A DNA stretch of 63,936 nt, filler included, from Reclinomonas americana ATCC 50394 (GCA_048213135.1; 22 parts of 22 records of this genome joined end to end with filler, not necessarily neighbours in it), one strand, 5' to 3'. Positions 29,066 to 53,065 are shown, numbered from the whole stretch's first letter. Notes: a model not told the origin generated them from the letters alone. Made by a program: numbers and translations.

Positions 29066-31162
29066 GGAGGAATTTAGGGGTTCTGTCGACAGGAGGGGCA
29101 GTGCGGATAGATATCTCCTTTTATGCTTGTGAGAACACAGGCTTCGTCGGGATTGGTGCGCTCTGAAGTTGATCGTGTGTGGTTCTGTCTCTCCCTCGTA
29201 CGAGGATTGTTGGGGTATCGAGAACAGTTCGCATAAGGTCTTCATTTTTCTCCATGTCCTTTTTTTCGTGAGATTGATGCGCTCTTCAGTTGCTCGTGCG
29301 CGTCTCTCTCTCACATTCTGACACACGATGTGTGTCGGGGTTTGTCGGCAGAGCTGTGCTCTCCGTTCTTTCTCTCTATTCTGGCGAGCAGAGGCTCTCA
29401 CAGCCAAGGTGCACTGGACAGTTGATCTTGTTACCTCTCTCTCTCTCTCCGATTGTGGGGGGTTCCGGCCAGCCCGCTTGGGAATGGTAGACTGTGTTGC
29501 GCTCTGCTGTTGATCATGCTTGCGAGGATTCTGGTGTATGAAGAATGCAGGTCACGAAAGGTCTTCTTTCTCTATTTTTTGTTCTGGTGAGCGAGGCCAG
29601 TGTGCTCTCGTGGGTCTTCTCTGTCTCTCGTTCTCTCATGTTTATGAGGATCGTTGGGGTATGAAGTTAGCAGTTTGAATGCTCTTCTTTCGCCCTCTGT
29701 GCTCTCGGGATTTGTACTCTCTCCTGTTGATCTTACGAGCCTCTCTCTCTTGCACGAGGCGTACAAAAAAGCAGGTCACGAAGCATATCTTTATTTCTCT
29801 CTGTGCTGGCGATCAAAGGCAGTGTGCTCTCGTGGTCTTCTCTCTCTCTCTCTCTCTCTCTTTGTATGCAGCGTATTCTCATGGACCATTACCCCCCTCC
29901 CCCCCTTCGCCCTCCTCTCCTCCCCCCCTCCCCACACAGCACCATCCCCACTCAACACCTCTTCGCCGAGGCCCGCACATGGTCGGTCCTCTGCCGCGCC
30001 GCACACATTGCCGACACGCGCATGGTGCCGGGTGGCGGCCGCGTGCTCGCCACCGACAGTCTCATTCGGCAGCGGCAGGAGATGGCCGCACACATCTCCA
30101 CTGTGGCGCTGTCGCCTGTCGCCGACCGAGTGGCCGTGTGCGGCAACGATCGGCGCATTCGCGTCTTTGATTTGTTCACTGCCGAGGCGCCGGAGCAGGT
30201 GTTGCTGTTTGGTGGACACAGGGTGAGTGTCATCCAGTCCAGTTTCCCCAGCTTTTTTTCTTTCGCCTCCTCCTCACCCCCTCCCCACCACCTGCAGGGC
30301 GGCCTCAACGACGCCACATTCTCCCCCGACGGAAGCATGCTGCTGACGGCCGGCGCCGACCGCACTGTGCGCATGTGGAGTGTCGGCGGCCAGCTGGCTT
30401 CCTTTGCGTGCGCCGCCGAAGGTAACCACGCGCTCATCATCCCTTACTCCCCTTTGCTTTTCATTCAACACCCTCCTCCTCCTCCTCCCACAGGCCGCCC
30501 CGCCTCCTCGGTGCGCTCCGAAGGCGTGTCAGCCGTGGCGGCGGTCGGCCGCTCGGTGATGCTGTGGGATCTCGACACGGAGACGCTGACGCAAGAGCTG
30601 CCGGTGATCCCCGACGACTTTTTGTACACGGTGCGCTACGCACTGCCGCACTGCGTGGTGACTGCGTCGAGGTCGCGACTGGTCACCCTCAGCGATCTGC
30701 GTGCCAACTGCAATGTGCGTGTGTTTGGCGCCGGCGCCTACCGCGGCACCGTGTTTTCGTGCGACGTGATTGGCAATGTGGCGGTGACGGCCTGTGCCGA
30801 CAACATACTGCGCGTGTTTGATTTGCGTCGCGCCGACAGCACCATCCAGTGGACCGAGGTTCCGGACCTGGCCACAGTGACGGTGCGTGCGGGAGAGTCC
30901 ACAAAAAAGAAAAGGGCGATCACTTACCGCCTCCCACTTGCGCGCACAGATTGATGAAGTCAAGATCCTGGCCGGCACCATGACCGGCGGCGTCTATCGC
31001 GTCGACCCTGGCGTGCGCGGCTCCGAGCCCGTGCTGCTCCTGCAGGACGATTCGCGCTTGCCGATTTACAGTGTGGCGGCGTCCAGTGACGTACTAGTAG
31101 CCGGCGGCGGCAGCTCTCTCTTGCATGTGATTGACTATAGCGGCACTCGACGAGCACAGTGA
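28241..31162 (+). CDS. F-box/WD40 repeat protein
   Basis: N-terminal F-box-like LSFPSDLWLLVCKYLPINDLTRLRILSREYK..LWR. WD repeats in 29940-31162 (GGHRGGLNDATFSPDGSMLLTAGADRTVRMWS; TACADNILRVFDLR); GT-AG introns; stop at 31160-31162. Confidence 0.85.
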
Positions 31163-31246: not shown

Positions 31247-35879
<4,633 letters not shown>

Positions 35880-39700: not shown

Positions 39701-40010
39701 TCAACAGCGCGCGACAGACGAGCAAGCAAGCAAGCACGCAAGCGAGCGAGAGAGACAGACGACAACCTCCTCCTCCTCTCCTCCTCCATGCAGCGCGAAA
39801 NNNNNNNNNNNNNNNNNNNNNNNNNNNNNNNNNNNNNNNNNNNNTTAATTAATTAANNNNNNNNNNNNNNNNNNNNNNNNNNNNNNNNNNNNNNNNNNNN
39901 CCCCCTCTCTGCTTCTTTCTTCTTCTTTCCTTAAATTTCTTTCCTCACCAATCGTCCTTCTTTTCTCCCCCCTCAATTCATCTACTCCTCACTTCCCACA
40001 CCCAATACAG

Positions 40011-43000
40011 CGTCGCGAGGTCTCTCTGCGATCAGAGAACGAGCTGGTACAGGGACTTCGCATCCTGCGCAGCCGCCTGCTGTCATCGCGCGGTTTGTCC
40101 GTCATCCATAGCTTTACCTCTGCTGTGCACACTCACTCCTTCTCGCTTGTGCAGAATGGCGATCCATCCCCCTGTTGGAGCTCCTGCAACCATTCCTGGC
40201 CGTGGTGCGCTCGAACATCACTTCGGGACCTGTGACGGGCGTGAGCTTGTCGGCGATTCACCGCTTTGTGTCGCATCCGCTCCTGCTGGTACCGCCGCAG
40301 CCACGATGTTGCGTTTCATAGCACAGCTGGATTCTTGGGCAATCTGCTTCGAGGAATCACGGCAGCTCTGTACTCGTGCAGCTTCCGCTCCTTCTTCTTC
40401 GTGTTTACCAGAGTAGCTTCCCCTTTCTGCCTTACTTGCATCACACTATCCCCCTCTCTCTTTCCTCGCTTCCCTTGTCCCCCTTTTCTATCCTCTCCTC
40501 TCCCATGTCCCTCTCGCCCTCTCCCCTCACCCTTCCTCCTCGTTCCGACCTTACACCTCACTCTCACCTTCACATTCTCTATCTTACTCGTCCTCCCTCG
40601 GTTCCCGCCATTCTCTCCTCCCACTTACCCCTTGCCCTACTGTGACCTTGCATTCTCCCTCCCCCTCACCCATCCTCACTTTTTCCCCTCATACTCATCC
40701 TTCCCCCGTTCCCCTTCACCCTCCCCACAGGCGACGACCCCTCCCTCCGCCAACGCCGCCGGCTCCTCCGCGAAGCCGCCAACGCCATTGGCGACGCCGT
40801 CACGCACTGCCAGTTCGAGATGGCCGACTACGAATCCGACGAGATCGTGCTGATGAAGATCCTCCAAGTGCTCAACTCCCTCGTGCGCTCCGACCTCGGC
40901 GCCCTGCTCGACAGCGACTACCTCTTTGACGTCGTGCACACGTCGTACAAGATCGGGCGCCACAGTCGCGCCACGGATCTGCTGAAGCGCACCTCGGACA
41001 TGTTCCTGCTGGAGATGATTTCGTCGATCTTCCGCCGCGTGCAATGCGACGGCAGCGACGACGAGGAAGTGGTGTGTGTGTGTCGACCTCTCTCGCTTCG
41101 TCTCTCCTAGTTTTCTCACGTATTGCCCCCGGTCGCAGGATGTACCATCCACCTCGGAGACGGCGGCCTACGTGCTGGAGTTTGTGGCGTCGCTGTGCGA
41201 CCCCGACTCGGCCGACGGCAACTCCACCGTCACACGCGCACTCGGCCTCTCGCTGGCCAACACGGCGCTGGAGGCCATTGCATCGTCGGCGGCGCTGGCC
41301 CCCGACCCAACCACACTGCGTCTGCCGAAAACCATTCAGCAGGTGATTGCCGATCGCCTCTGTCTCGGCGTGATGAAGGACGTGGAGGAGTTGGCGCAAC
41401 TGGGCCTGCTGTGGCTGGCGCTGCGCACCGCGCACTTGATCGTCACCGTCCCGGTGCTCAACCAGTCGCTCCAGCCGCAAGTCGAGGCCATTATGGTCAA
41501 CACGTATCTGGGAGGCGGTGACTTGCCGATCTTCACGCAGTTGTCGCGCGATGCCGTCAATTCGAGTGATCTGGGTGGCAAGGTTTGTGGGGCAACAGAG
41601 GACAACTCGTTGTTTGTGCTGGTTGCCATCATTTGTTGTTTCTCTCCAGCGTGCTGTACGCATGCATCCTTCATTCCTTTCTCCTTCTGTTGCTTGTGGT
41701 TCTCTCCGTTAATCTGTTATTCTTGTTCGTCACCTTCGTTCTTCTTCGCACGAGCTCTCGTCTGCCAATGCTTCTTCTCTCGCCCGAATTCCTTGCATCC
41801 AACTTATGTTCATACCATTTGTTGTTTTGGTCCTCTCAGTATTCTTTCACTCTTGCTCATTCGTCATCGCTTTTGTGCACGTCTGTCAGTGCTTTGCTCG
41901 AATCCATACTTCTCTTCCTCCTCCCTCGTGTTGCCTTCGTTCCTGTTTCCTGCCCTCTCACCCCACCAAATGCACAAATTTCGGTCTGGTTCGCCCGTAC
42001 AGTCCTCCGATTATCACTGACTTCTGTTGGTTTTCCCACCCTCGTTCTTCTTCATTTGTGCTCACATTTGTCCTTCCCCTTTATTCCCCTTTCCTCCCTT
42101 TCCCTTCGCAGAGCTCCAACCCAGTCTCCGGCATCGGAGTCCGCTCACCCGAAGCCGCCGAACTCTTCATCGACGCCGTCGGCGACTTGCTCTCCCACCC
42201 GCTGGTGCCCGCCTACCTGTACGCCCAGTTCGACTGCGCACTGCGCTCCGAGTCGGTGCTCGAACTGCTCATGCGCGATCTCTTCAAGGTGCGCTGCCTG
42301 ATTGTTATTCTCCTTCACCTCGACCGCTAACCTGCGCCCGTGTTATACAGGTCGTTGTCCCAACACATCAGCAGCTGACCTCCCTCAATCTGTCGGCTCT
42401 CGATGCACTGTTGAAGCTGGTCGAAAATATTGACGAGCACCGCCCGCTGGTCGACACGGCTGTGGATCGTGAGGTGTGATGCACATCATGTTCGCTCTTT
42501 GTGCATGTGCTATTGCTGACTGTGTACACTGGGACGCTACAGGCCTCGGATCACCTGACTGCCGCCAGTCATCGCAAGGCCATGATCAAGGCCGCCGTGC
42601 AAGAATTCAACCGCGAACCGCGCAAGCCCGAGTATGGCGTGGCGTACATGCAGGAGCACCGGCTCATCAGCACCCCGCCGCTTCCCTCTGAGGTCACGCA
42701 ATTCCTCCTGCAAGCGCGCGGTCTCAATCCGCACTTGGTGGGCGAGTACATTTCGCGACCTGGCGACTTTAATGTGTCGGTACTGGAGGAGTACCTCAAG
42801 TCGTTCAACTTTGCCAACCTGCGCATCGACGAGGCGCTGCGCAAGTTCATCACCAGGTAGACGTAATCATCGCCCTTTCTTTATCACACCCTCTCTCCTT
42901 GACACTTTCCCCATTGACGCAGCTTCTTCTGCCCGGGCGAGGCACAGCGCGTGGACCACGTGGTCACCTCATTCGCTCGCATGTACGTGCAGCAGAATGG

Positions 43001-46000
43001 CGGCGGCGCCGGTGTCACCTGCTCCGCCTTCTCGCCCAACTCGTCGCTCATCGTGTCGGGATCCGTGGACAACACACTGCGCGTGTGGTCTCTGACGGGA
43101 GTGGTGGGTGGTGGCGGCGCCTCCTCGAGCAGTCTCTCCGATGTGGAGTTGCTGGAGGTGCCGACGTGCCTGCGCACGCTGTCGGGTCACACTGATTGCG
43201 TGACATCGGTGGCGTACTCGCCCGACGGACGGTGCGTCGCATCCGGCAGCCGCGATCGCACTATTCGTGTGTGGGCAGCGGCGGGAGCCACCGAGTGTGC
43301 GGCCGTGCTGGAGGGTCACGGCGATCGCGTCACGGCTGTGGTGTTTGTGCGCGGTGTGCCAGAGGAGGATGCCTCGGTGGCCGCTGCTCCCAACTCCAAG
43401 AACTACTGGCTCGCCTCGGCCAGCAGCGACAGCTCGGTGCGCCTGTGGTGTGTGCGGCTGCGTGACGACGGTGGTGTGGCGGACACGGAGTGTGTGCGCA
43501 TCGTCACCGGCCACACCAATGACATTACGTCGTTGGCCACTGCGGGTACGGTGGCCGTCACGGGCGGTGTCGACAAGAGTGTGCGGCTGTGGGACTTGCT
43601 GACGGGGGAGTCATTGGCGATTCTGCGTGGCCACACGGCGAGTGTCACGAGGTGAGAGGGGGGAGGCGAAGAGTGACAGGCAGAGGGATAAGTGGGCAAG
43701 AGAATACGCTGTTCCCGTTTTCACTTTCTTGTTCCCTCTCGTCTTGTGTCAAGAGGGCATCGACCCGCGAGGTCGACGAGAAATCTCGTCCGTTTCTCAC
43801 CATTCCAAGTCATCTCAGCTCGCATTCCTTCGCCTTTCTTGTTTCTCCTTCTACTTTTTCTCTCCTTTTCCTCCCCTCCCCTCCCTTTACTTCCCGCGTT
43901 TCACATTTCCTTTCTCTCTTTCCCTTTCTTTTCATTCCCTTACTCTCCTTCCCTTTCTCTCCTTCCCTTTCTCTCTCCTCTTCCTCTCCTCCCACTCTCT
44001 CCTTCCTTCGTTTCTCCTTTCCCTCATCCTTCCCCCTGTTCTCCTTCCCCTTCCACCTTTCGCTCAATCTTCCCCCTTTCTCCCCCTTCTCCAGTGTGTG
44101 CATCACGGTGGACGGCCGCCGCGTCATCTCCGGCTCCCTCGACTCCTCGGCCAAACTGTGGGACGTGGAGTCGCAGACGTGCCTGCAGACCTTCAACTGT
44201 GGCCCCGCTGGCAGCCGGACAACCTGCGTCTCCATCGCCTCCGACGGCCGCATGTGCTGCGCCGGCTCCTCCGACGAGGCCGTGCGTGTCTGGCGGTGCG
44301 CCGACGAGACGGCGGCCAAGGCGGCTCCCGAGGAGCCCGTGGCAGCGCTGGCTTTTACGCTGAAGGGCCACACGGATCGTGTGACGAGTGCCACCTTCTC
44401 GCGCGATCATCGCTTCCTGGTGACCACGAGTCTCGACAAGACCATTCGCGTGTGGGATGCGGGCAGTGGGAAGCAGTTGCTGCACTTTGAGGGGNNNNNN
44501 NNNNNNNNNNNNNNNNNNNNNNNNNNNNNNNNNNNNNNTTAATTAATTAANNNNNNNNNNNNNNNNNNNNNNNNNNNNNNNNNNNNNNNNNNNNGCCGCC
44601 AGCGCTGGCGGCAGTGGTGCTGCCGGTGGTGCTGGTGGTGCTGGTGCAGCAGGGGGAGTTGCACAGGGAGGTGGAGGTGCCGGTGGCGTTGCAGGAACAG
44701 CACGCCCGCCACATCTCATTCACCACCACGGCGAGAAGGAGGTTTTCGCCGAAGATGAGACGTTCGGTCACGTGTTCACGTCCACCGACACGACAGTGGT
44801 GATGGCCTTTTCCATTATGATGTTGCAGACGGATCAGCACAATCCGTCAGTGCGGGTGCGTTGCGCGTGATTTGTACAAGAGAGAAGAAGCTCGTTCTTA
44901 GGAGTGTGTGCATGCGCAGAAACGCATGACGGCCGACGAGTTCGTGTCAAACAATCGCGGCGTGAACAAGGGTGTGGATCTGCCGGAGACGCTGTTGCGC
45001 CGCATCTTTGAGTCGGTGTCGGCTCGTGCGTTTGCCAACGAGGATCGCATCGTGAATTGCCATCGCAACGCCTCGCGCTGGGCCGAGTTGGTGGAGGAGG
45101 CGTGTTGCCACGCTGGCAATTTTACGCACAGCGACCCGGTGGTGGAGGCCGCCATGCGTCATGTTGCGTTTACTGGTGAAGCTGATTGGAGGAGTTTTTT
45201 GGTTGTGCGCTTACAATGTGTGTTCATGCAGGCTTCTGAGAATGGGTACTTGCCGTTTGCTCGCAATTTGTTCTCCCAAGCCTGGCGACCGGCCGTCAGC
45301 TCGCTCACGTATGGTGAGTGGTGGTGGAAGGGAGGGAGGGAGAGATATAGAAAGAGAGAGAGGGAGGGAGAGAAATAGAGAAGGAGAGGGGTTGAGTGAG
45401 AGGGAGAGGGCGAGTGAGGAGAGAGTGACCGTCGATGGAACAGAGAGACATGAGCAAGGTTGAAAGAGTGAGTGGGTGAATGTGAGAGAGAGAGAGAGTG
45501 AGAGTGACGAGTGAAAGAGGAGGGGCAATGTGCTTGCTTGACTCCTACTTATTCTTTCGTTCTCTCATGCGCACACTCTTCTTCTTCTATCATGCTTTTC
45601 TCATCCTCCGTTGACACAGTTTCCACTTGTTAATTTTCCCCTCTCTTTTCTTTTTGCGTCTCTGTGCTCCTGTGTCTTTTGATGACTCACTGACATCATT
45701 GCAGTGCTCGAGCACACCCACGATGTCGACGTTCTGCGCACATGCATGCGTGGTTTGGTGTTGTGCGCCAAGGTCGCGGCCAGTTTTGGGATGTCAACCA
45801 TTGTCAATCACATGGAGGTGCGTGTGTTGTGATGACTCGCTTCAGCCCCCTCGAGTGTCTCACGGAATGGGTGTTTCCCCCCAACGCAGGTCACCTTGTG
45901 CAAGTTTGTTATGCACGGCTTTGCGGATGGCTCGCGGACACGTATCGTGATGCCGTCGACTGCATCGCAAGTTGCTGCAAGAGATCTCACAAGAAGGTAT

Positions 46001-49000
46001 GGAGATGCTGGGAGACATTCATTTGTCGCTTCTTTCCATGTCTTGCGTTATCTCCAACTCTTTGGCTCATCCCCCCGCCTGTTTCATCACNNNNNNNNNN
46101 NNNNNNNNNNNNNNNNNNNNNNNNNNNNNNNNNNTTAATTAATTAANNNNNNNNNNNNNNNNNNNNNNNNNNNNNNNNNNNNNNNNNNNNCAATGTAACT
46201 CTCTCATCTCTTCATCTGCTGCCTGCTGACAGTGGAGCGCGACGCAGGTGCTGGAAATCATTCTCCGCCTCCACCGTCTCGGCGTGCTGCCGGTGGAGTT
46301 GCTCGAGTGTCGCGATGTCAGTGCTGACGACAGTCGCCGTGTGATGCGACCATGTGCGTACCTCTCGATTCCTGCCTCTGTTATCGCATCACCTCACTCA
46401 CTCACTCGCCATCCTCAGTCGTGATTCGGCCGATTCGCGATGACTCGTCTTCCGGCATCGGTTCGTTCTTCTCGTTCTTCAGCAGCGCCCGAGCTGCCGA
46501 CACGGAGGAACATCGAATTGCATACGATCGCTCGTACTCGCGTCTCGAGGCCTTTGTGCGCGAATGTGCCTTGCAGAATTGGCTCGAGAACACACAGTTT
46601 CGTGGGGATGTCAAGTCCACACTGAATGGATTGGGGTAGTGTTACTTACCGCCCTCGTTCATTTCACAGCATGCTCTCCGACGACAGTCTGGTGTTCCTA
46701 GTCAAGTCGATGCTCATGTCACTACAGCCAGAGAAGGACGGCGCGCGCCCGACCGTGCACACGGTTGTGTTTGGCGTGGAACTGCTGACGCGCATTGTGC
46801 TGGAGAACGAGCACCGCATCCTCACCGTGTGGGAGATGGTGTTTGACTTTTTGGCGTCGACGGTGGTGCGGGCCATTGGCTTGCGCCCCGAGCAGCTGGT
46901 CACCACCCCGGCCACGTCGTATTTGGTGATTGTGCACTCGAATGTCTCCTATGCTCCTCATGTCGCACTCACCATTTGTGTGCGTATCAAAGGAGGTCTG
47001 CGAACACCGTGTGACGATTGTGGGCGGCACATTGGAGGAAACATCTGTGCCATTTGTGCTGGTGGAGCGAGTGGCTATCAGTCTGTTGCGACTGTGCACA
47101 CGCGTCTTGCGACTCGTGTCGCCGCTGCGCGTGAATCCGGGTGGTATGTGTGAATTGCAGTTCGTCCTTGTCAACAACGGTTTTCCATTCCTCATCGTTT
47201 GCGTGTGTGTGCTTGCAGAATCCGCGGCGGCATTGCAACTGCATCCGAGTTTGCGCGACAGTGTCCGTGCCTCACTGGCCCTGGTGGCCTGTGCCTCCTT
47301 GTCGCGTGCCTTTGCGGTGATGGACAAAGCCGGTATGTTTGCGTCGACATTCCCCACTTCGCCTGTCCTTCTATTTCTCACCCTGTCCCTACGGCAGAGG
47401 GCGAGCCTGGCAGATCGTCGGGTGACTTTGCGGCTCAGCAGGTGGCTCCGACCAGCGCGCGAGGCGTTCCCGGCAACGTGTACTCGGAGGTGTATCAGAG
47501 TCAGCCGGACACCACCTATGCTGCTGGGCGATTGGCCGTGGCGTTCCGCGAGCTGGCCTCCACCCTCTGCTTGTTGGGCGAAAAGTTTCGTCTTCAAGCA
47601 TCTGTGTGCATCTGGCGTAACCCGTGCTCACACTTCATCGCCCTCCCAGTGCGCACCCGAGCGAGTGGCGCTGTGTGTTGCGGTGCTGGAAGAATCTGTC
47701 CATGTACCCGGCGGCACAGCAGGCGGCGTTGGAGGTGGTCGGCCTGATTGTGGAGCGTGGCCACTTGCTGCGCTGCGTGGAAAAGTATCCGATGATGGCG
47801 GTGGCGGCTGGTGCACCGACCAACACGGCCGAGACGCTGGCCAGCGACTGTTTGGACACGCTGGTCAAGTTTGCGTGCCGCATGCATGGCGTGCCGGACG
47901 CCGTGCGCAAATGCCTCGCCCTCATGCTCGACATTGCCGAGCGTTGCGTAGCACGGCACCACACCCACTCCTTTCCTTGCACTGAGACCCCGTTCTTCCT
48001 CCCCGTAGGCGTCAAGTCGGTCTACACGTGGATGTGCGTGCTGCGTGGCCTGCGCATCGTGTGCACCATTCGCAACCGCAACGCCAGACATCACGGCCTC
48101 ATTGCGCTGTCGAATGCGCTGCAACCGATGCACCTGAAGATTGTGCCACCCAGCGCCGCCGACTGGATGTCGGTGTTCCAGCAGACTCTGTTCCCGCTGA
48201 TGGAGGACTTTTTGGATAGCCCGCTGTTTGACAAGGCGGCTGGGACGGCCGATGATGAGCGGCTGCGTGCTGTCAGTGTCATTTCCAAGACGTTTTTGCA
48301 GTTGCGCCGGTGGGGGGAGGAGGGGGGAAGGGGGTAAAGAGGGAAGGGGGAGGGGGATAGAGACGCGCGCGTGTTTGTGACAGAGAGGGTGAGACTGCGT
48401 CCACAGGCAGCACGTTTGATACGCCACGATGCTAGTGAGTGCGAGGAAGCGGTGATGGAGGAAGAGGTGGAACAGAAAGGGAAATGGGAGGGAAGGAGAG
48501 GCAGAGGAGAAGGAAACTGGAGAGCGACAGGGAGATATGAAAATAGTTGCAGAGGAAGGTTGGAGCGAGACTTCTTCCGTGTGAAATGGGCGACGGATGC
48601 TGTGCGTTTGTGCAAGCAAGAGGAGGAGAAGAAAAAAGACAGGAACGATGAATGGGATAGAAACCGTGATTGTGTAGACGTAGCACGTGAGATCTGCCGT
48701 GGATGTTCGTCGTTTGTGTGCATGAGTAGGAGCAGGAGAAGAAGAAGAGAGAGATAAGGAACAGAGGAAGAGGTGGAAAAGACTGTTGGTGAGGGAGGTA
48801 TTTTGTGCGGATGCCTCTGTGTTGTTTGCAGGAGGAGAAGGAGATGAAGAAGAATAGAAAAAAGAAGAAAGAGAATTGAGCAGAAGCGAACGGGTGAGAG
48901 TTGGCAGAAAAGAGCAGAGGTAGAATGAGCCGTATGGTATCGAAGATTTCTGCACGAGTCTGATCTCTGCGGCAGTGTACGACGACTTGACTTCCATACA

Positions 49001-49749
49001 TTCTCACTCTCTCCTCACTCCCTTCTCCCCCTTTCCCCTTGCAGTCAATTGTCGGTTCTGGCGCACAGTCGCGACTTCCACGTGCTGTGGACACAGCTGT
49101 TGCGCTTCATGGAAAAGTACACGCGCGGCAGCTGCACCGAGATGCTGGTCGACGGTGTGCGGGAGACGCTGAAGAACATTTTGCGTGTGATGGACGCGCA
49201 GAATATCTACAGCATCATTGGCGAGGTGTGTGAGAGAGAAAATGCGACGCAGCTGCGAGAGGGAAAACAAGCTGGCTGACTCTCCCCTCTCCACCGCAGG
49301 AAATCCGCGATCTTACCTGGGGCATTCTCGACCGCTGCGAGCCACTGGCCGAGCTGCGCGCCGAGTTGGCTCCTCCACCACCGCCGCCGCCTCCACCACC
49401 AGCGGCACCAGTTGCGGCTCCGTCGCACGCCCAGTCGTCCGCTGCGGCCGCTGCCGCCGCAGCATCGGCATTGGATCAAGATGCTGCGCTGAGTGCTGCA
49501 GCCGGAGACGAGGAGGAGCGTGGCGGCGGCAGAGAAGGCACGCCGCATGAGCAGGACGAGGATGCGGTGAAACCGGTGCGGGCGCCTGCGGCCATGTCGC
49601 CGTCGTCACTCACCGCCGACGACATTCCCATGCTCTCGGAGGAGGTGCCGAGCTCCGGTCTGCGCATCACCTCGTGGACCATGGTGACGGACGACGAACT
49701 GCGCGATGAGCAACTAGAATCCGACCTGGGCGAGGTCGACCTTAGATGA
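40011..49749 (+). CDS. GBF1: Large ARF guanine-nucleotide exchange factor of the GBF1/Gea/GNOM family, with a WD40 propeller inserted in its Sec7 domain (5' partial)
   Basis: DCB region PFLAVVRSNITSGPVTG..., DAVTHCQF...SDEIVLMKILQVL; HUS-box-like YLYAQFDC; Sec7 VGEYIS...VLEEYLKSFNFANLRIDEALRKF-SFFCPGEAQRVDHV, FTSTDTTVVMAFSIMMLQTDQHNPSV, KRMTADEFVSNNRGVNKGVDLP; HDS-like C-terminal regions (ELLTRIVLENEHRILTVWEMV; ETLKNILRVM); stop at 49747-49749. Confidence 0.92.
42999..44494 (+). other. Seven-repeat WD40 beta-propeller domain within the GBF1-like gene
   Basis: Seven WD units ending LRVWS, IRVWA, VRLWC, VRLWD, AKLWD, VRVWR, IRVWD, plus a closing strand KQLLHFEG; one phase-2 intron at 43652-44094. 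Confidence 0.9.
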
Positions 49750-49837
49750 CGACGGGAGCAAAGGAAAAAAGAGGAGGGAGAGGAAAAAAACAGCACAGTC
49801 AACAACAAAGTGTAATCAAATCCTTATCGTATGAGAG

Positions 49838-52092
49838 CTATGAGGGCGGTGAACAGGGACTGCTGGCTGCGTCTTCGGTGCCCGGTGCCGCGGCGAATTT
49901 ACGCGTCAGCGGCGGTGGCGGCGGCACCTTGACGTGCACCTCTCCAGCGGCTCCGTAGTGAGGTGCCCACCACGAGTCCGGCAGTGGCGAGCCGTCGGCT
50001 ACAGGCGGGTGGAGAGCGCGCATGGCACGTTCACACAGCGACGGCACAAAGGGTTGCAGAAGGGAGAGGGACACGCGCACGGCCTCGAATGTGATATAGA
50101 CAATGTCGTCCACGCGTTGCTGCGACGCTTCGTCCTTCTGCGAACAGCGCAGTGAGTAAAGAAAGAAGGAGAGAGAGACGATGATTTGAGAGCGAGACCT
50201 CTTTGCGCAGTCGCCACGGCTCGAGAGCGGAAAAGTAGCCATTGGCGGCGGCGAGAGTGCACATGATGCTGCGCAGTGCGAACGACGGCTCAAACTGGTT
50301 CATGCTGTGGAGCACTTCGCCGTCGAGGCCGTTGATGGTGCGAATGAGCTCGTGGTCGCGCGGTGTCAGTCGTGAGTCGGGTGGTCGTCGCACGGACGAG
50401 GCCGTGAAGATGCGCGGCGCGGTGATGCGACTGAGCAGGTTGCCGAGGGAGTCGGCCAGGTCGCCATTGTTCGCAGAGATGAGGGCGTGCTCGGAAAAGT
50501 CGCCGTCGTTGGAGAGGCTGCTGTTGCGCAGGAGGTAGTAGCGAAGAGCCTCGATTCCTGGAATGTGTGAGGTGAGGAGGTGAGGGAGAGAGGAGAGGGT
50601 GAGGTGAGTGATAAGAGACGCACCGAATTTGTCAATCATGGCGTGCGGGTCCACGACATTGCCGCGGCTCTTGCTCATCTTGACGTTGCCGACGGTCCAG
50701 TGGCCGTGCGTCACCACGCGGTAGGGGAGTGGGAGGCCCGAGGCGAGCAGGAAGGCGGGCCAGTAGACCTGGGGATGGGGAGGGGAGAAGGGAGGGAAAG
50801 GGAGAAGGGAGGGGAAGGGAGAGGGGAAAGGATGAGATAGAGAGCGTGTGGAAGAAGAGGAAGACAGAATGAGTGCGAGAGAAAAGGGCTGAAGGGAGAA
50901 AGACCGAAGAGGCACGAGAGAGATGTCGACACGAGAAGAGAAGAAGTGAGAGGAGGGAGATGGGAAAGAGTGAGAGGATGAGAGAGGATGAGAGAGAGGG
51001 AACGGGGGGCAATGAGAGATAGAGAGCGATGAAGAGGAAGAGAGAGGATGAGGGAAAAGTGAGACATGGGAAAGAGACAGGCAGGATGAGCGTGAGAGAG
51101 AGATGTAGACAAGAGAATGGAGGAAGAGAGAGGATGAGGGAAAAGTGAGACATGGGAAGTGATAGGCAGAACGAGCGTGAGAGGGACTGGCACAAGAAAA
51201 CAGGTAGAGACGAGAGATAAAGAGGTAGAAGAAGATGGGAGACGTACATCAACAAAGAGAGATCGAGAGACGGAGAGGACATGCGTGAGAGAAGGTGAGA
51301 AAGAGTTGGGTGTGCGTGAGAGTGGCGGAAGAGAGACCTCCAGGGAGAGAGAGAGAGGAAAAGAGACCAAGAGAGAAAGAGAAGGGAGACAGAGAGGAGA
51401 CGCAGAATCAGAAACAAGAAGTCAATGCAAGGCTAAAAGAAGCAAGCGCAGCAAGACACCGCCGCATTGCGAAGAGTAAAGAACACAACTGCGCGCGAAA
51501 ATGCAGATAGAGAGACAAAGAGAGAGAGAGAAGAAACGCAACAGTGTGGAACTTGAGAATGTCCTTGCCGACCACGTGAATCATTGGCGGCATTTCGTCT
51601 GGTGTCAGGTCATTGAGCGAGCGTGGTCGTCCACTTTCGCGCTCCGCACTGCGACAACAAATCAGCTTGCCAAAATCAAGGAGAAGGAAGAAATCATGCA
51701 AACGAAACATGCGCACAGCAGCCGTCAAGTAATTCGCCAGCGCATCGAGCCACACGTAAAACACCTGCGGCTCCTCAATTAACTCATCGTCCGGAACCGG
51801 GATACCCCACGGCAGTCGTGCTGCAGGGAGACTGTCAGCTCCTGCGCAGATCGATCAAGAGCTCTCTCTCTCTCTCTCTCACACGCGTACGCACCCAGCG
51901 GTCTCGACACGGACAGGTCTTCCAGGCCGCGCGAAACCATGGCCAGCGTCTCGTTGGCGCGCACCTCTGGTCGAATCGGATGCCGCACTTGGATCCACTC
52001 CTCGACGGCGTGTTTGAAGGACGACAGCGCAAAGACGAGGTTCTGTTCCGTCATGCGTTCGACGGGGCTGCCGGTCTCGCAGCTCACCATGA
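49838..52092 (-). CDS. MARS2: Methionyl-tRNA synthetase, mitochondrial/bacterial type (5' part in gap)
   Basis: DLSVSRP..LPWGIPVP, FYVWLDALANYLT, HVVGKDILKFH-VYWPAFL, HGHWTV..KMSKSRGNVVDP, LRYYLLR...LADSLGNLLSR. These motifs are the organellar type, not the cytosolic YVWFDAPIGY/KFSKS type. Confidence 0.92.
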
Positions 52093-52554
52093 CTGTGCGC
52101 CGGAGGAGGGGAAGGGGGGATGTGAGGGGAAGAATGGGGCGAAAGGAGAAGAGTGAGGGAAATGGTAAGAAGAATGGACACCGAATGAAAGAACGTGGAC
52201 GGGCCGCGAGAGAGAGAGAGAGAGAGAATACAAGAGTGGGAGCTGGAAAGACTGAGAAGGAGAGAGGAAGCGACGGCAAAAGAGCGCCGTACTGCAGAGA
52301 CGGAGAACAGGACGAACACAACGCGGAGGAGAGAGAGCATGAGCGAACACGAGGGAAAAAGTGTGTCTCAGCAAAGAGTGCCCATGGAAGAAAGATCAAT
52401 AAACGATGAAAGGAGTGAGAGACAGAGCACAAATAGAGAGGGGCTGCATCGAGAGAGACAAGGAAACAAGCCGTCCCACTCTCTCTCTCTCTCTCTCTCA
52501 CGGTGCACATATTAGAGATAACACTGCGTCGCGTGAGACTGCGAGACGCATGAC

Positions 52555-52830
52555 ACAAAGAGAATGCTTCAAACGAAACGAGAGAGAAAAAAGAGCAAGC
52601 GTGAGAGACACAGAGCACAAGAAGAAAGGGAGGACACTGCAACATGAGAGACAATGGAATTCAGAGAGAGAGAGAGAGAAAAGAGGGAGCAAGCGTGAGA
52701 GACACAGAGCACAAGAAGAAAGGGAGGACACTGCAACGTGAGAGACAATGAAATTCAGAGAGAGAGAGAGCGAAAAAAGAGGGAGAGGGAGACGGAGCAA
52801 GTGCAAGAGACACAGAGCACTACAACGTGA
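52555..52830. repeat. ~100 bp intronic tandem repeat
   Basis: agcaagcgtgagagacacagagcacaagaagaaagggaggacactgcaac..gagagacaatg occurs at ~52593 and ~52688, with a degenerate third copy. Confidence 0.7.
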
Positions 52831-53065
52831 GGGACAATGATACACAGAGAGAGACGAGGACAAGAAAGGGCACAGTAGAAGCGAGGAGAGCGAGTGAGAC
52901 AAAGAGAGTTGATCATCTCCCTCCCTACCCCATCCCTCCCTCTCTCCACCCCTTCCCCCTCACTCNNNNNNNNNNNNNNNNNNNNNNNNNNNNNNNNNNN
53001 NNNNNNNNNTTAATTAATTAANNNNNNNNNNNNNNNNNNNNNNNNNNNNNNNNNNNNNNNNNNNN

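Follow-up and report, generated by a model that had tools for sequence, protein, structure and literature searches.

Whether a complete WD40 propeller can be carried inside the catalytic Sec7 domain of a large ARF-GEF is the question raised by a locus of Reclinomonas americana ATCC 50394. Few GEF modules are understood as well as the Sec7 domain, which is regarded as a compact unit of ten helices; in the large Golgi GEFs, regulation is generally attributed to the flanking DCB, HUS and HDS domains. A first-pass annotation of the locus had proposed such an insertion in a GBF1/GNOM-type protein. The stretch of DNA that was analyzed (hereafter, the window) is 63,936 nucleotides long and consists of 22 small contigs in 64 kb, joined by 21 identical 100-nt spacers. 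The reading we favor, with moderate confidence, is that the locus encodes a GBF1-type ARF-GEF in which a complete seven-bladed WD40 propeller lies in frame between Sec7 motif 1 and motif 2. Features of the locus are collected in Table 1.

Table 1. Coordinates of features of the GBF1-like gene and its WD40 insert, numbered from the first nucleotide of the window.
Feature	Position	Strand	Evidence or remark
N-terminal (DCB-like) exons	40181..41041	+	tblastn with GBF1 P0143 residues 66-198, E 8e-5 and 8e-10
Exon, N-terminal half of Sec7 domain	42543..42856	+	Pfam Sec7 profile 1-89, 81 bits, E 1.1e-22
66-nt GT..AG intron	42857..42922	+	Reading frame and splice dinucleotides
Sec7 motif 1 and helix G	42923..42998	+	Pfam Sec7 profile 91-116; helix predicted at exon residues 7-24
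GGGAG junction, Sec7 helix G to blade 1	42999..43013	+	Continuous open frame; conserved in P0121 read in the +1 frame
WD40 blades 1-4 and start of blade 5	43014..43651	+	PF00400, 133.4 bits, E 1.3e-39
443-nt GT..AG intron, TC-rich, within WD repeat 5	43652..44094	+	Repeat restored across intron
WD40 blades 5-7, to strand d of blade 7 at contig end	44095..44494	+	PF00400, 77.4 bits, E 7e-22
Assembly break filled by a contig spacer of nominal length (44 N + TTAATTAATTAA + 44 N)	44495..44594	.	One of 21 identical spacers
Low-complexity stretch rich in G and T, giving Gly/Ala when read in the Sec7 frame	44595..44702	+	Codon log-odds; may be intron or mis-read
Exon part, Sec7 motif 2 and helix H	44703..44855	+	Pfam Sec7 profile 117-144 at 44769-44852; coding-like in the Sec7 frame
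64-nt GT..AG intron	44856..44919	+	Splice dinucleotides; Sec7 profile resumes after it
End of Sec7 domain	44920..45027	+	Pfam Sec7 profile 146-181
Downstream (HDS-type) exons, third contig	46683..49213	+	tblastn with GBF1 P0143 residues 1167-1231, 1593-1680 and 1691-1736

The gene spans approximately 40181-49213 and is spread over three small contigs. Animal GBF1 was found by tblastn to be collinear with it over three successive contigs, with order and orientation kept, and near Sec7 the alignment begins at GBF1 residue 668 (position 42375). The DCB-like exons were also matched by P0129 (E 2.5e-12). Pfam DCB scored 19.8 bits at these N-terminal exons (cut-off 25.6), and the Pfam 'GBF1-like TPR' family scored 24.3 bits for the downstream exons (cut-off 27). 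GBF1/garz proteins, at approximately 42-44% identity, were the top named relatives of the N-terminal Sec7 half, whose named relatives are animals at about 42%. Ten of the top long matches were looked up and seven were named: two GBF1/garz, four animal SEC7 or unnamed proteins, and one Monocercomonoides BIG1-like protein. Designation of the gene as a GBF1-like large ARF-GEF is thus supported by sequence similarity, with the choice of GBF1 over BIG/Sec7p made by match ranking.

The match to the Pfam Sec7 profile breaks off after position 116 and is taken up again at 117, with neither overlap nor loss. Positions 1-181 are covered except for 90 and 145, which are exon-junction positions outside the piecewise scans. 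On the 5' side, positions 91-116 are matched by the first 26 residues of the exon (E 2.9e-4 for a 30-residue piece alone), and the catalytic Glu of PGE is encoded by GAG at 42939-42941, exactly where the first-pass annotation had placed it. On the 3' side, the resumption of Sec7 with motif 2 that it had described is found in the following contig (44595-46090). The profile search that it had suggested as a check was run and returned a split Sec7 match, the two parts of which flank the WD40 matches. Both halves do appear conserved, as had been claimed, with the catalytic Glu and motif 2 kept and the profile continuous across the cut. A second copy of either half was not found within the window. 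The insert occupies what we take to be the loop between Sec7 helices G and H, which carry motif 1 and motif 2. Upstream of the cut, the match to P0122 ends at the codon position of the 42857-42922 intron, after FMTR (FITR in the window on read-through).

The exon that carries motif 1 (42923-43651) is one open frame with its first full codon at 42924. It runs without a gap from Sec7 through the GGGAG junction and in the same frame into WD40 repeats that score far above the PF00400 gathering cut-off of 27 bits, in agreement with the original description of this junction. AlphaFold2 modeling of this exon (exon 2) placed a helix at residues 7-24 followed directly by blades, with a mean pLDDT of 85 and most of the WD part above 90. 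The 16 predicted strands form four a-b-c-d sets, and blades 1-4 are confident sheets. The insert has its own intron, as had been noted, and joining the exons across it yields a regular WD repeat 5. This intron is of the same kind as introns elsewhere in the gene. The strand-c signature D-x(3-5)-[LIV]-W occurs seven times and the GH dipeptide five times, and all seven repeats retain the Asp and Trp signatures. Exactly seven repeats had been claimed; seven are visible, but the sequence stops at the contig end and more could lie in the break. The contig (39901-44494) terminates in KQLLHFEG, which had been called a closing strand. In the exon 2 model the blades are contiguous a-b-c-d units from right after the junction, which implies a propeller without 'velcro' strand exchange between its N- and C-termini, and KQLLHFEG is better read as strand d of blade 7.

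The WD part has the codon usage of the Sec7 part. Blades 1-5 contain no Met, and the WD40 part therefore has no independent start; an independent WD40 gene nested in an intron was rejected on this basis and on the continuity of its frame with Sec7. Two other WD40-coding stretches of the window were rejected as the source of the insert, one being only 33% identical (58552-59043, minus strand) and the other giving no tblastn match (29731-30951, plus strand). A scan for bacterial promoters and terminators at the junction found nothing and is irrelevant here.

A counterpart of the junction was found in P0121, the closest Sec7 relative, a protein of 162 aa that had been predicted on an ENA metagenome contig of 899 nt. 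This protein is 58-61% identical to the N-terminal Sec7 half of the window and then continues in the +1 frame, having been mis-called. When its tail was treated as +1-frame codons, 64 of 71 were compatible with the true-frame residues of the window across the junction (mean 20.5 and maximum 35 in 2000 shuffles; at most 30 at other offsets). P0121 reaches only 18 codons into the insert, and 17 of these are compatible, where each compatible set holds 1-8 residues (mostly 4-8) and true identity is therefore lower than 17/18; the best of 460 other offsets gave 12 and the best of 20000 shuffles 15. The two sequences also differ in their introns, with one present in P0121 but not in the window and that at 42857-42922 present in the window but not in P0121, which indicates that P0121 comes from a different genome. 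Its sharing of the junction in an independent assembly largely removes the worry that the exon is chimeric. The comparison supports a Sec7-to-WD40 junction that is real and conserved in another species. It also illustrates how a metagenome gene call in the wrong frame can confirm a doubtful junction of a poor assembly.

The 3' side of the insert rests on contig order and not on continuous sequence. A gap had been reported at 44495-44594; it is present, but it is one of the 21 identical spacers between contigs. The Gly/Ala linker described beyond it is indeed open in the Sec7 frame, but its codon usage is not coding-like. Codon log-odds over 44595-44702 come to -0.73 bits per codon when the stretch is read in the Sec7 frame, against +0.43 in the +1 frame, and GC3 over 44595-44771 is 0.44 versus approximately 0.8 in exons. 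A candidate CAG acceptor ends at 44700, and codon usage becomes coding-like in the Sec7 frame directly after 44702. Judged from composition, the Gly/Ala stretch may be partly intron.

These observations bear on the strongest alternative, which we nevertheless regard as unlikely: that the propeller exons are facultative, with WD40 present in some transcripts only or with the WD40 transcript ending after the propeller, and that a working GEF is produced by a splice that skips 43010-44700. A donor at 43009|43010 (CCG|GTGTCA) and the CAG at 44700 would join in frame and remove the whole propeller just ahead of the point where coding-like usage begins, and the 3' side falls in the unsequenced contig break. 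Against this, any one donor/acceptor pair has a one-in-three chance of being in frame, most of the eleven other donors have G at +5 where the candidate donor has C, and a pyrimidine tract is absent from the candidate acceptor. Conservation in P0121 also extends to the codons that directly follow the candidate donor, where most differences fall on third positions of the Sec7 frame, which means that these codons are translated in at least some transcripts.

It is less probable still that the insert is a passenger, real and translated in a loop that tolerates large insertions, in which the propeller has no role in GEF function. If the Sec7 domain of a Plasmodium falciparum ARF-GEF is likewise interrupted, as has been reported, the site would be permissive. 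Neutral loop expansion does not usually yield a folded seven-bladed domain, however; the canonical WD signatures have been kept in all seven repeats, and the comparable part of the insert is conserved between two species whose N-terminal Sec7 halves are only about 60% identical. The least probable account, that 39901-44494 is chimeric through GGC-rich low complexity or is a paralogue (GBF1 N-terminal half plus a WD40 gene) misplaced before the motif 2 contig, draws on the very fragmented assembly, the presumed contig order and the GC-rich low complexity found both at the junction (GGCGGCGGCGCCGG) and where the next contig begins, but a chimera cannot explain the same junction in another species' assembly, and the exact restart of the Sec7 profile, the single copy of each half in the window and the collinearity of the three GBF1 contigs also oppose it.

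The first-pass annotation had held the architecture to be undescribed, and our searches agree in their scope. Comparable WD40 inserts were absent from the 150 best related Sec7 proteins, and WD40 inside Sec7 was not found in the literature searched. The annotation's proposal to look for the insert in relatives thus returned none among these 150 proteins, but the junction itself was matched in P0121. In 84 of the 93 related proteins with enough sequence, the distance from PGE to motif 2 is 29-62 residues by pattern match, whereas here the two are separated by at least 370 residues of WD40; of the other relatives, six show motif 2 by eye and three are broken fragments. Protein searches with the junction exon (at least 120 matches in the 'longer' class, at least 120 in 'near' and 19 in 'shorter') recovered only generic WD40 proteins, none with Sec7, among the matches listed. 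In the JGI metagenomes, alignment to the N-terminal Sec7 half confirmed none of 267 pattern matches, and a clade-specific Sec7 pattern gave no matches. Neither the junction pattern nor the Sec7 pattern had a match in GTDB genomes, nor did the junction pattern in viral contigs. ESM Atlas look-alikes of residues 1-90 were WD40 clusters only, with none containing Sec7.

Taken as a GBF1-type protein with a propeller in its Sec7 loop, the gene product is probably a real, conserved nested-domain variant of GBF1, with any function predicted from its architecture. Such a protein would still work as an ARF-GEF. The propeller could move with the mobile catalytic domain, serve as a docking platform and bring a partner (a coat, cargo tail, Rab, receptor or lipid-bound factor) close to where ARF is activated. 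Another possibility is that it acts as a steric gate, either on the ARF-binding groove or on the open/closed swing of the GEF domain. The gating idea draws on yeast Gea2, the GEF domain of which is described as sterically constrained in its changes between a closed and an open state (PMC9469209). We tentatively suggest, as a possibility well short of an even chance, that a protist clade built a regulatory or cargo/coat-sensing WD40 platform into the Sec7 domain of an essential Golgi ARF-GEF, such that partner binding gates ARF activation. If true, a folded domain nested in a Sec7 domain would be seen here for the first time, and the protein would provide a natural example of a GEF that acquired an allosteric switch through domain insertion. 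A conserved propeller on the loop by the ARF-binding groove would represent a different regulatory solution from the flanking domains, would mean that a fold of roughly 40 kDa can be accommodated in the loop between motifs 1 and 2, and would offer a natural handle on which factors are brought to the place where ARF is activated, be it coat, cargo, Rab or receptor.

Among known systems, the gene most resembles GBF1, Gea1/Gea2 and GNOM/GNL1, with which it shares a Sec7 domain with catalytic Glu and motif 2, an apparently matching order of regions (a putative DCB-like N-terminus before Sec7 and putative HDS-type regions after it) and, for animal GBF1, collinear tblastn matches. It differs in carrying WD40 sequence between PGE and motif 2. 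The Sec7 domain of a Plasmodium falciparum ARF-GEF is reportedly interrupted by a long insertion between conserved halves, with no recognisable folded domain. The separation of conserved Sec7 halves by extra sequence would be common to both proteins, but the R. americana insert is predicted to be a canonical seven-bladed propeller. The Plasmodium protein is described as having an 'unusual' Sec7 domain and as still mediating brefeldin A sensitivity (Baumgartner et al. 2001, cited in PMC7061341). Lineage-specific Sec7 fusions have been described as TBS (Sec7-PH-TBC) and ARCC (Ank-Sec7-PH) (Pipaliya et al. 2019, PMC6727740). The words 'WD40', 'insert' and 'beta-propeller' do not occur in the main text of this survey. 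These fusions likewise add an interaction or regulatory domain to an ARF-GEF in a particular protist lineage, but their extra domains sit beside a cytohesin-type Sec7, whereas the propeller sits inside a GBF1-type Sec7. The insert itself resembles canonical WD40 propellers in its consensus-like GH/WD repeats, and its best solved-structure matches by sequence are Nostoc 2YMU, PkwA, WDR5, Lis1 and Notchless. It shows no orthology to named WD40 proteins, with best local identities of 28-41% among the matches listed, apart from two short matches at 48% and 55% over 18-26% of the query. Unlike canonical propellers, it is built of contiguous a-b-c-d blades and, in the favored reading, would have both ends tied to its host domain.

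A tblastn search with an animal GBF1 (P0143, 1900 aa) as the query returned colinear matches on the plus strand, which fall in the correct order and orientation on three successive contigs (39901-44494, 44595-46090 and 46191-52965); these contigs are therefore scaffold-ordered and not a random string. The window (63936 bases) is not continuous sequence: it was put together from 22 small contigs (about 1-8 kb each), with 21 identical 100-nt spacers (44 N, TTAATTAATTAA, 44 N) between them, so any feature that crosses a spacer hinges on contig order. Pfam identified Sec7 clearly, while DCB (19.8 bits) and "GBF1-like TPR" (24.3 bits) were both slightly below the Pfam cut-offs. A library of 1.84 billion representatives yielded 776 Sec7 relatives; in the best 150 of these the top identity was 61%, in a fragment, and the long named relatives were animal GBF1/garz at about 42-44%, indicating a divergent eukaryote. 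The genome has a GC3 of about 0.8, a preference for G-ending codons and low-complexity introns. A second copy of either Sec7 half was not found within the window.

The first-pass annotation had described Sec7 motif 1 running through GGGAG into WD40 repeats within one exon, with Sec7 resuming afterwards, and this observation was confirmed. Exon 2 holds a stop-free frame from Sec7, including the catalytic Glu of PGE (codon 42939-42941, within the piece matching profile positions 91-116), through GGGAG to WD40 (PF00400, 133.4 bits). The split Sec7 hit flanking WD40 that had been predicted was found with Pfam: the profile stops at 116 and restarts at 117 across the insert, and positions 146-181 follow after a 64-nt intron. 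No part of the Sec7 domain around the insert is missing and none is doubled.

Features of the GBF1-like gene and its WD40 insert
Feature	Position	Strand	Basis or remark
GBF1 residues 66-198	40181-41041	+	tblastn of P0143
GBF1 residues 668-850	42375-43001	+	tblastn of P0143
Sec7 N-half exon	42543-42856	+	Sec7 profile 1-89
Intron, 66 nt	42857-42922	+	precedes exon 2
Motif 1 exon (exon 2)	42923-43651	+	first 26 residues match Sec7 profile 91-116
GT..AG intron, 443 nt	43652-44094	+	inside WD repeat 5
Second WD40 exon	44095-44494	+	remaining repeats, PF00400 77.4 bits
Sec7 profile resumes at 117	44769-44852	+	next contig
GBF1 residues 1167-1231	46683-46874	+	tblastn of P0143
GBF1 residues 1593-1736	48029-49213	+	tblastn of P0143

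Seven WD repeats were tabulated; all seven keep the strand-c Asp and Trp, and five have GH. An AlphaFold2 model of exon 2 (mean pLDDT 85) has a helix at residues 7-24 followed by 4 x 4 strands, the first beginning six residues past the helix; the blades are therefore contiguous a-b-c-d units. The contig stops exactly at KQLLHFEG, which forms strand d of blade 7. In blade 1, a Gly/Ser-rich loop of 24 residues (43092-43163; exon 2 residues 57-80), modelled at low confidence (pLDDT about 53-63), connects strand c to strand d; another long loop, of a-b type, occurs in blade 3.

Codon usage is the same in the Sec7 portion as in the WD40 portion, and Met is absent throughout blades 1-5, leaving the propeller no independent start. 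We consider it fairly probable that the gene encodes one GBF1 polypeptide in which a WD40 propeller is nested, and whose 3' link to motif 2 crosses a spacer. The gap previously noted at 44495-44594 is present, but it is one of the 21 identical contig spacers, and the 3' side of the insert thus depends on contig order. The stretch that follows had been read as a Gly/Ala linker. Scored against the gene's own codon table, 44595-44702 gave -0.73 bits per codon in the Sec7 frame versus +0.43 in the +1 frame, making this part of the linker doubtful as read, whereas the Sec7 frame is coding-like from 44703 (+0.30); across the longer interval 44595-44771, GC3 is 0.44. The 44595-44702 segment is a G/T-rich, hexamer-like repeat with atypical codon usage in the Sec7-continuous frame, and its +1 frame uses the genome's favorite codons GTG, CTG, GCG and CCG. 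Intron, microsatellite and local frame error are all possible readings: a CAG ends at 44700, so some of the segment may be intronic, and a (GGTGCT)n-type microsatellite whose +1 score is accidental is just as conceivable. Splicing from the GT at 43010-43011 to that CAG would be in frame and would excise the propeller, so that its inclusion would be isoform-specific. We regard this as unlikely, as the usual G at +5 is missing from the candidate donor and the candidate acceptor has no pyrimidine tract; moreover, codons past the donor are conserved as coding, which places the propeller in at least some transcripts.

It is quite improbable that the insert is real but a passenger without function. 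Exchange activity is probably retained, because neither the catalytic Glu nor motifs 1 and 2 are disrupted. The insert lies in the loop connecting two helices that, together with helix F, line the ARF-binding groove. During exchange by yeast Gea2, the GEF domain moves back and forth between a closed and an open state, with steric clashes driving the switch (PMC9469209). A propeller of roughly 40 kDa at this loop would move along with the GEF domain, and two roles seem most plausible for it: it may dock a partner next to the site of ARF activation, or it may control entry to the groove or the change between closed and open states. In sequence, the insert is a consensus-like WD40 (closest solved structures 2YMU, PkwA, WDR5, Lis1 and Notchless) and no orthology to a named protein was found, so its sequence gives no pointer to a partner.

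The best Sec7 match, P0121 (162 residues), was predicted from an ENA metagenome contig of 899 nt. Over its first 75 residues it shares 58-61% identity with the Sec7 N-half of the window; the prediction then runs on through a short intron and proceeds in an incorrect frame. A BLASTP comparison of P0121 with the +1 translation of the spliced CDS from the window aligned 65 columns (41.5% identity, E 2e-6) and extended beyond the Sec7/WD40 junction. A codon-level test asked whether each window residue could be encoded given the +1-frame residues of P0121. Over the whole tail, 64 of 71 residues were compatible (2000 shuffles: mean 20.5, sd 3.4, maximum 35; other offsets at most 30). Past the junction 17 of 18 codons were compatible, where none of 460 other offsets gave more than 12 and none of 20000 shuffles more than 15, in a comparison with broad compatible sets that spans just these 18 insert codons and rests on protein, not DNA. 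Mismatches mostly hit the central position of the +1 codon, equivalent to position three of the true codon, which is the pattern that would be expected from purifying selection on the Sec7/WD40 frame. The P0121 genome carries an intron at a site that is uninterrupted in the window and lacks the intron at 42857-42922; it therefore represents a different species and an independent assembly, and a chimeric contig cannot explain the junction. The Sec7-to-WD40 junction is, on this sequence evidence, real and conserved, and the +1-frame match counters the earlier worry over a chimera at 42999. An assembly artefact, suggested by the poor assembly and by GC-rich low complexity at the junction and again where the following contig begins, is highly improbable given the recurrence in P0121. 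Over the Sec7 N-half, identity to the window is 61% for P0121 and 52% for P0122, a second ENA metagenome relative, encoded on a 1512-nt contig. An intron following "F(I/M)T" is common to P0122 and the window; P0121 has none there and carries a different one 24 codons earlier.

Other coding stretches and open frames were observed. On the minus strand at 50034-52660, a methionyl-tRNA synthetase gene (Pfam tRNA-synt_1g, reaching 78.7 bits) spans three or more exon-bearing ORFs and faces the GBF1-like gene convergently at the latter's 3' end. A canonical WD40 coding stretch (58552-59043, minus strand; PF00400, 128.5 bits) runs into a contig end at 59044; it was ruled out as the insert's source, with identity of just about 33%. 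A 407-aa open frame with WD40 matches (29731-30951, plus strand; 53.6 bits) adjoins a TPR-containing frame (31250-31681, minus strand). An unbroken 1262-aa open frame with exon-like GC3 (3184-6969, minus strand) had no Pfam match at E <=0.001.

Motif 2 lies within 29-62 residues of PGE[AS] by pattern match in 84 of the 93 relatives that have PGE[AS] and at least 80 residues behind it; six more were recognized by eye, and three are broken fragments. The proposed check of GBF1 relatives for the same insert, made with the insert as the query, detected no WD40 in the best 150 of 776. The junction exon, searched against 5.8 billion proteins, matched generic WD40 proteins with no Sec7 among the matches listed, and look-alikes in the ESM Atlas were WD40-only clusters. 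As far as these searches reach, the nested WD40/Sec7 architecture is not seen elsewhere. The earlier interpretation is partly supported: it stands for a junction that is real and conserved and an architecture unseen among the relatives searched; an unbroken polypeptide into motif 2, presence of the insert in every transcript and a functional role are putative. Baumgartner et al. reportedly described, in 2001, a Plasmodium falciparum ARF-GEF with an interrupted Sec7 domain. Literature searches found no WD40 nested in a Sec7 domain, and the terms "WD40", "insert" and "beta-propeller" are absent from the main text of a eukaryote-wide ARF-GEF survey (PMC6727740). The nearest precedent for the insert is the Sec7 domain of the P. 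falciparum ARF-GEF, mentioned as "unusual" in PMC7061341.
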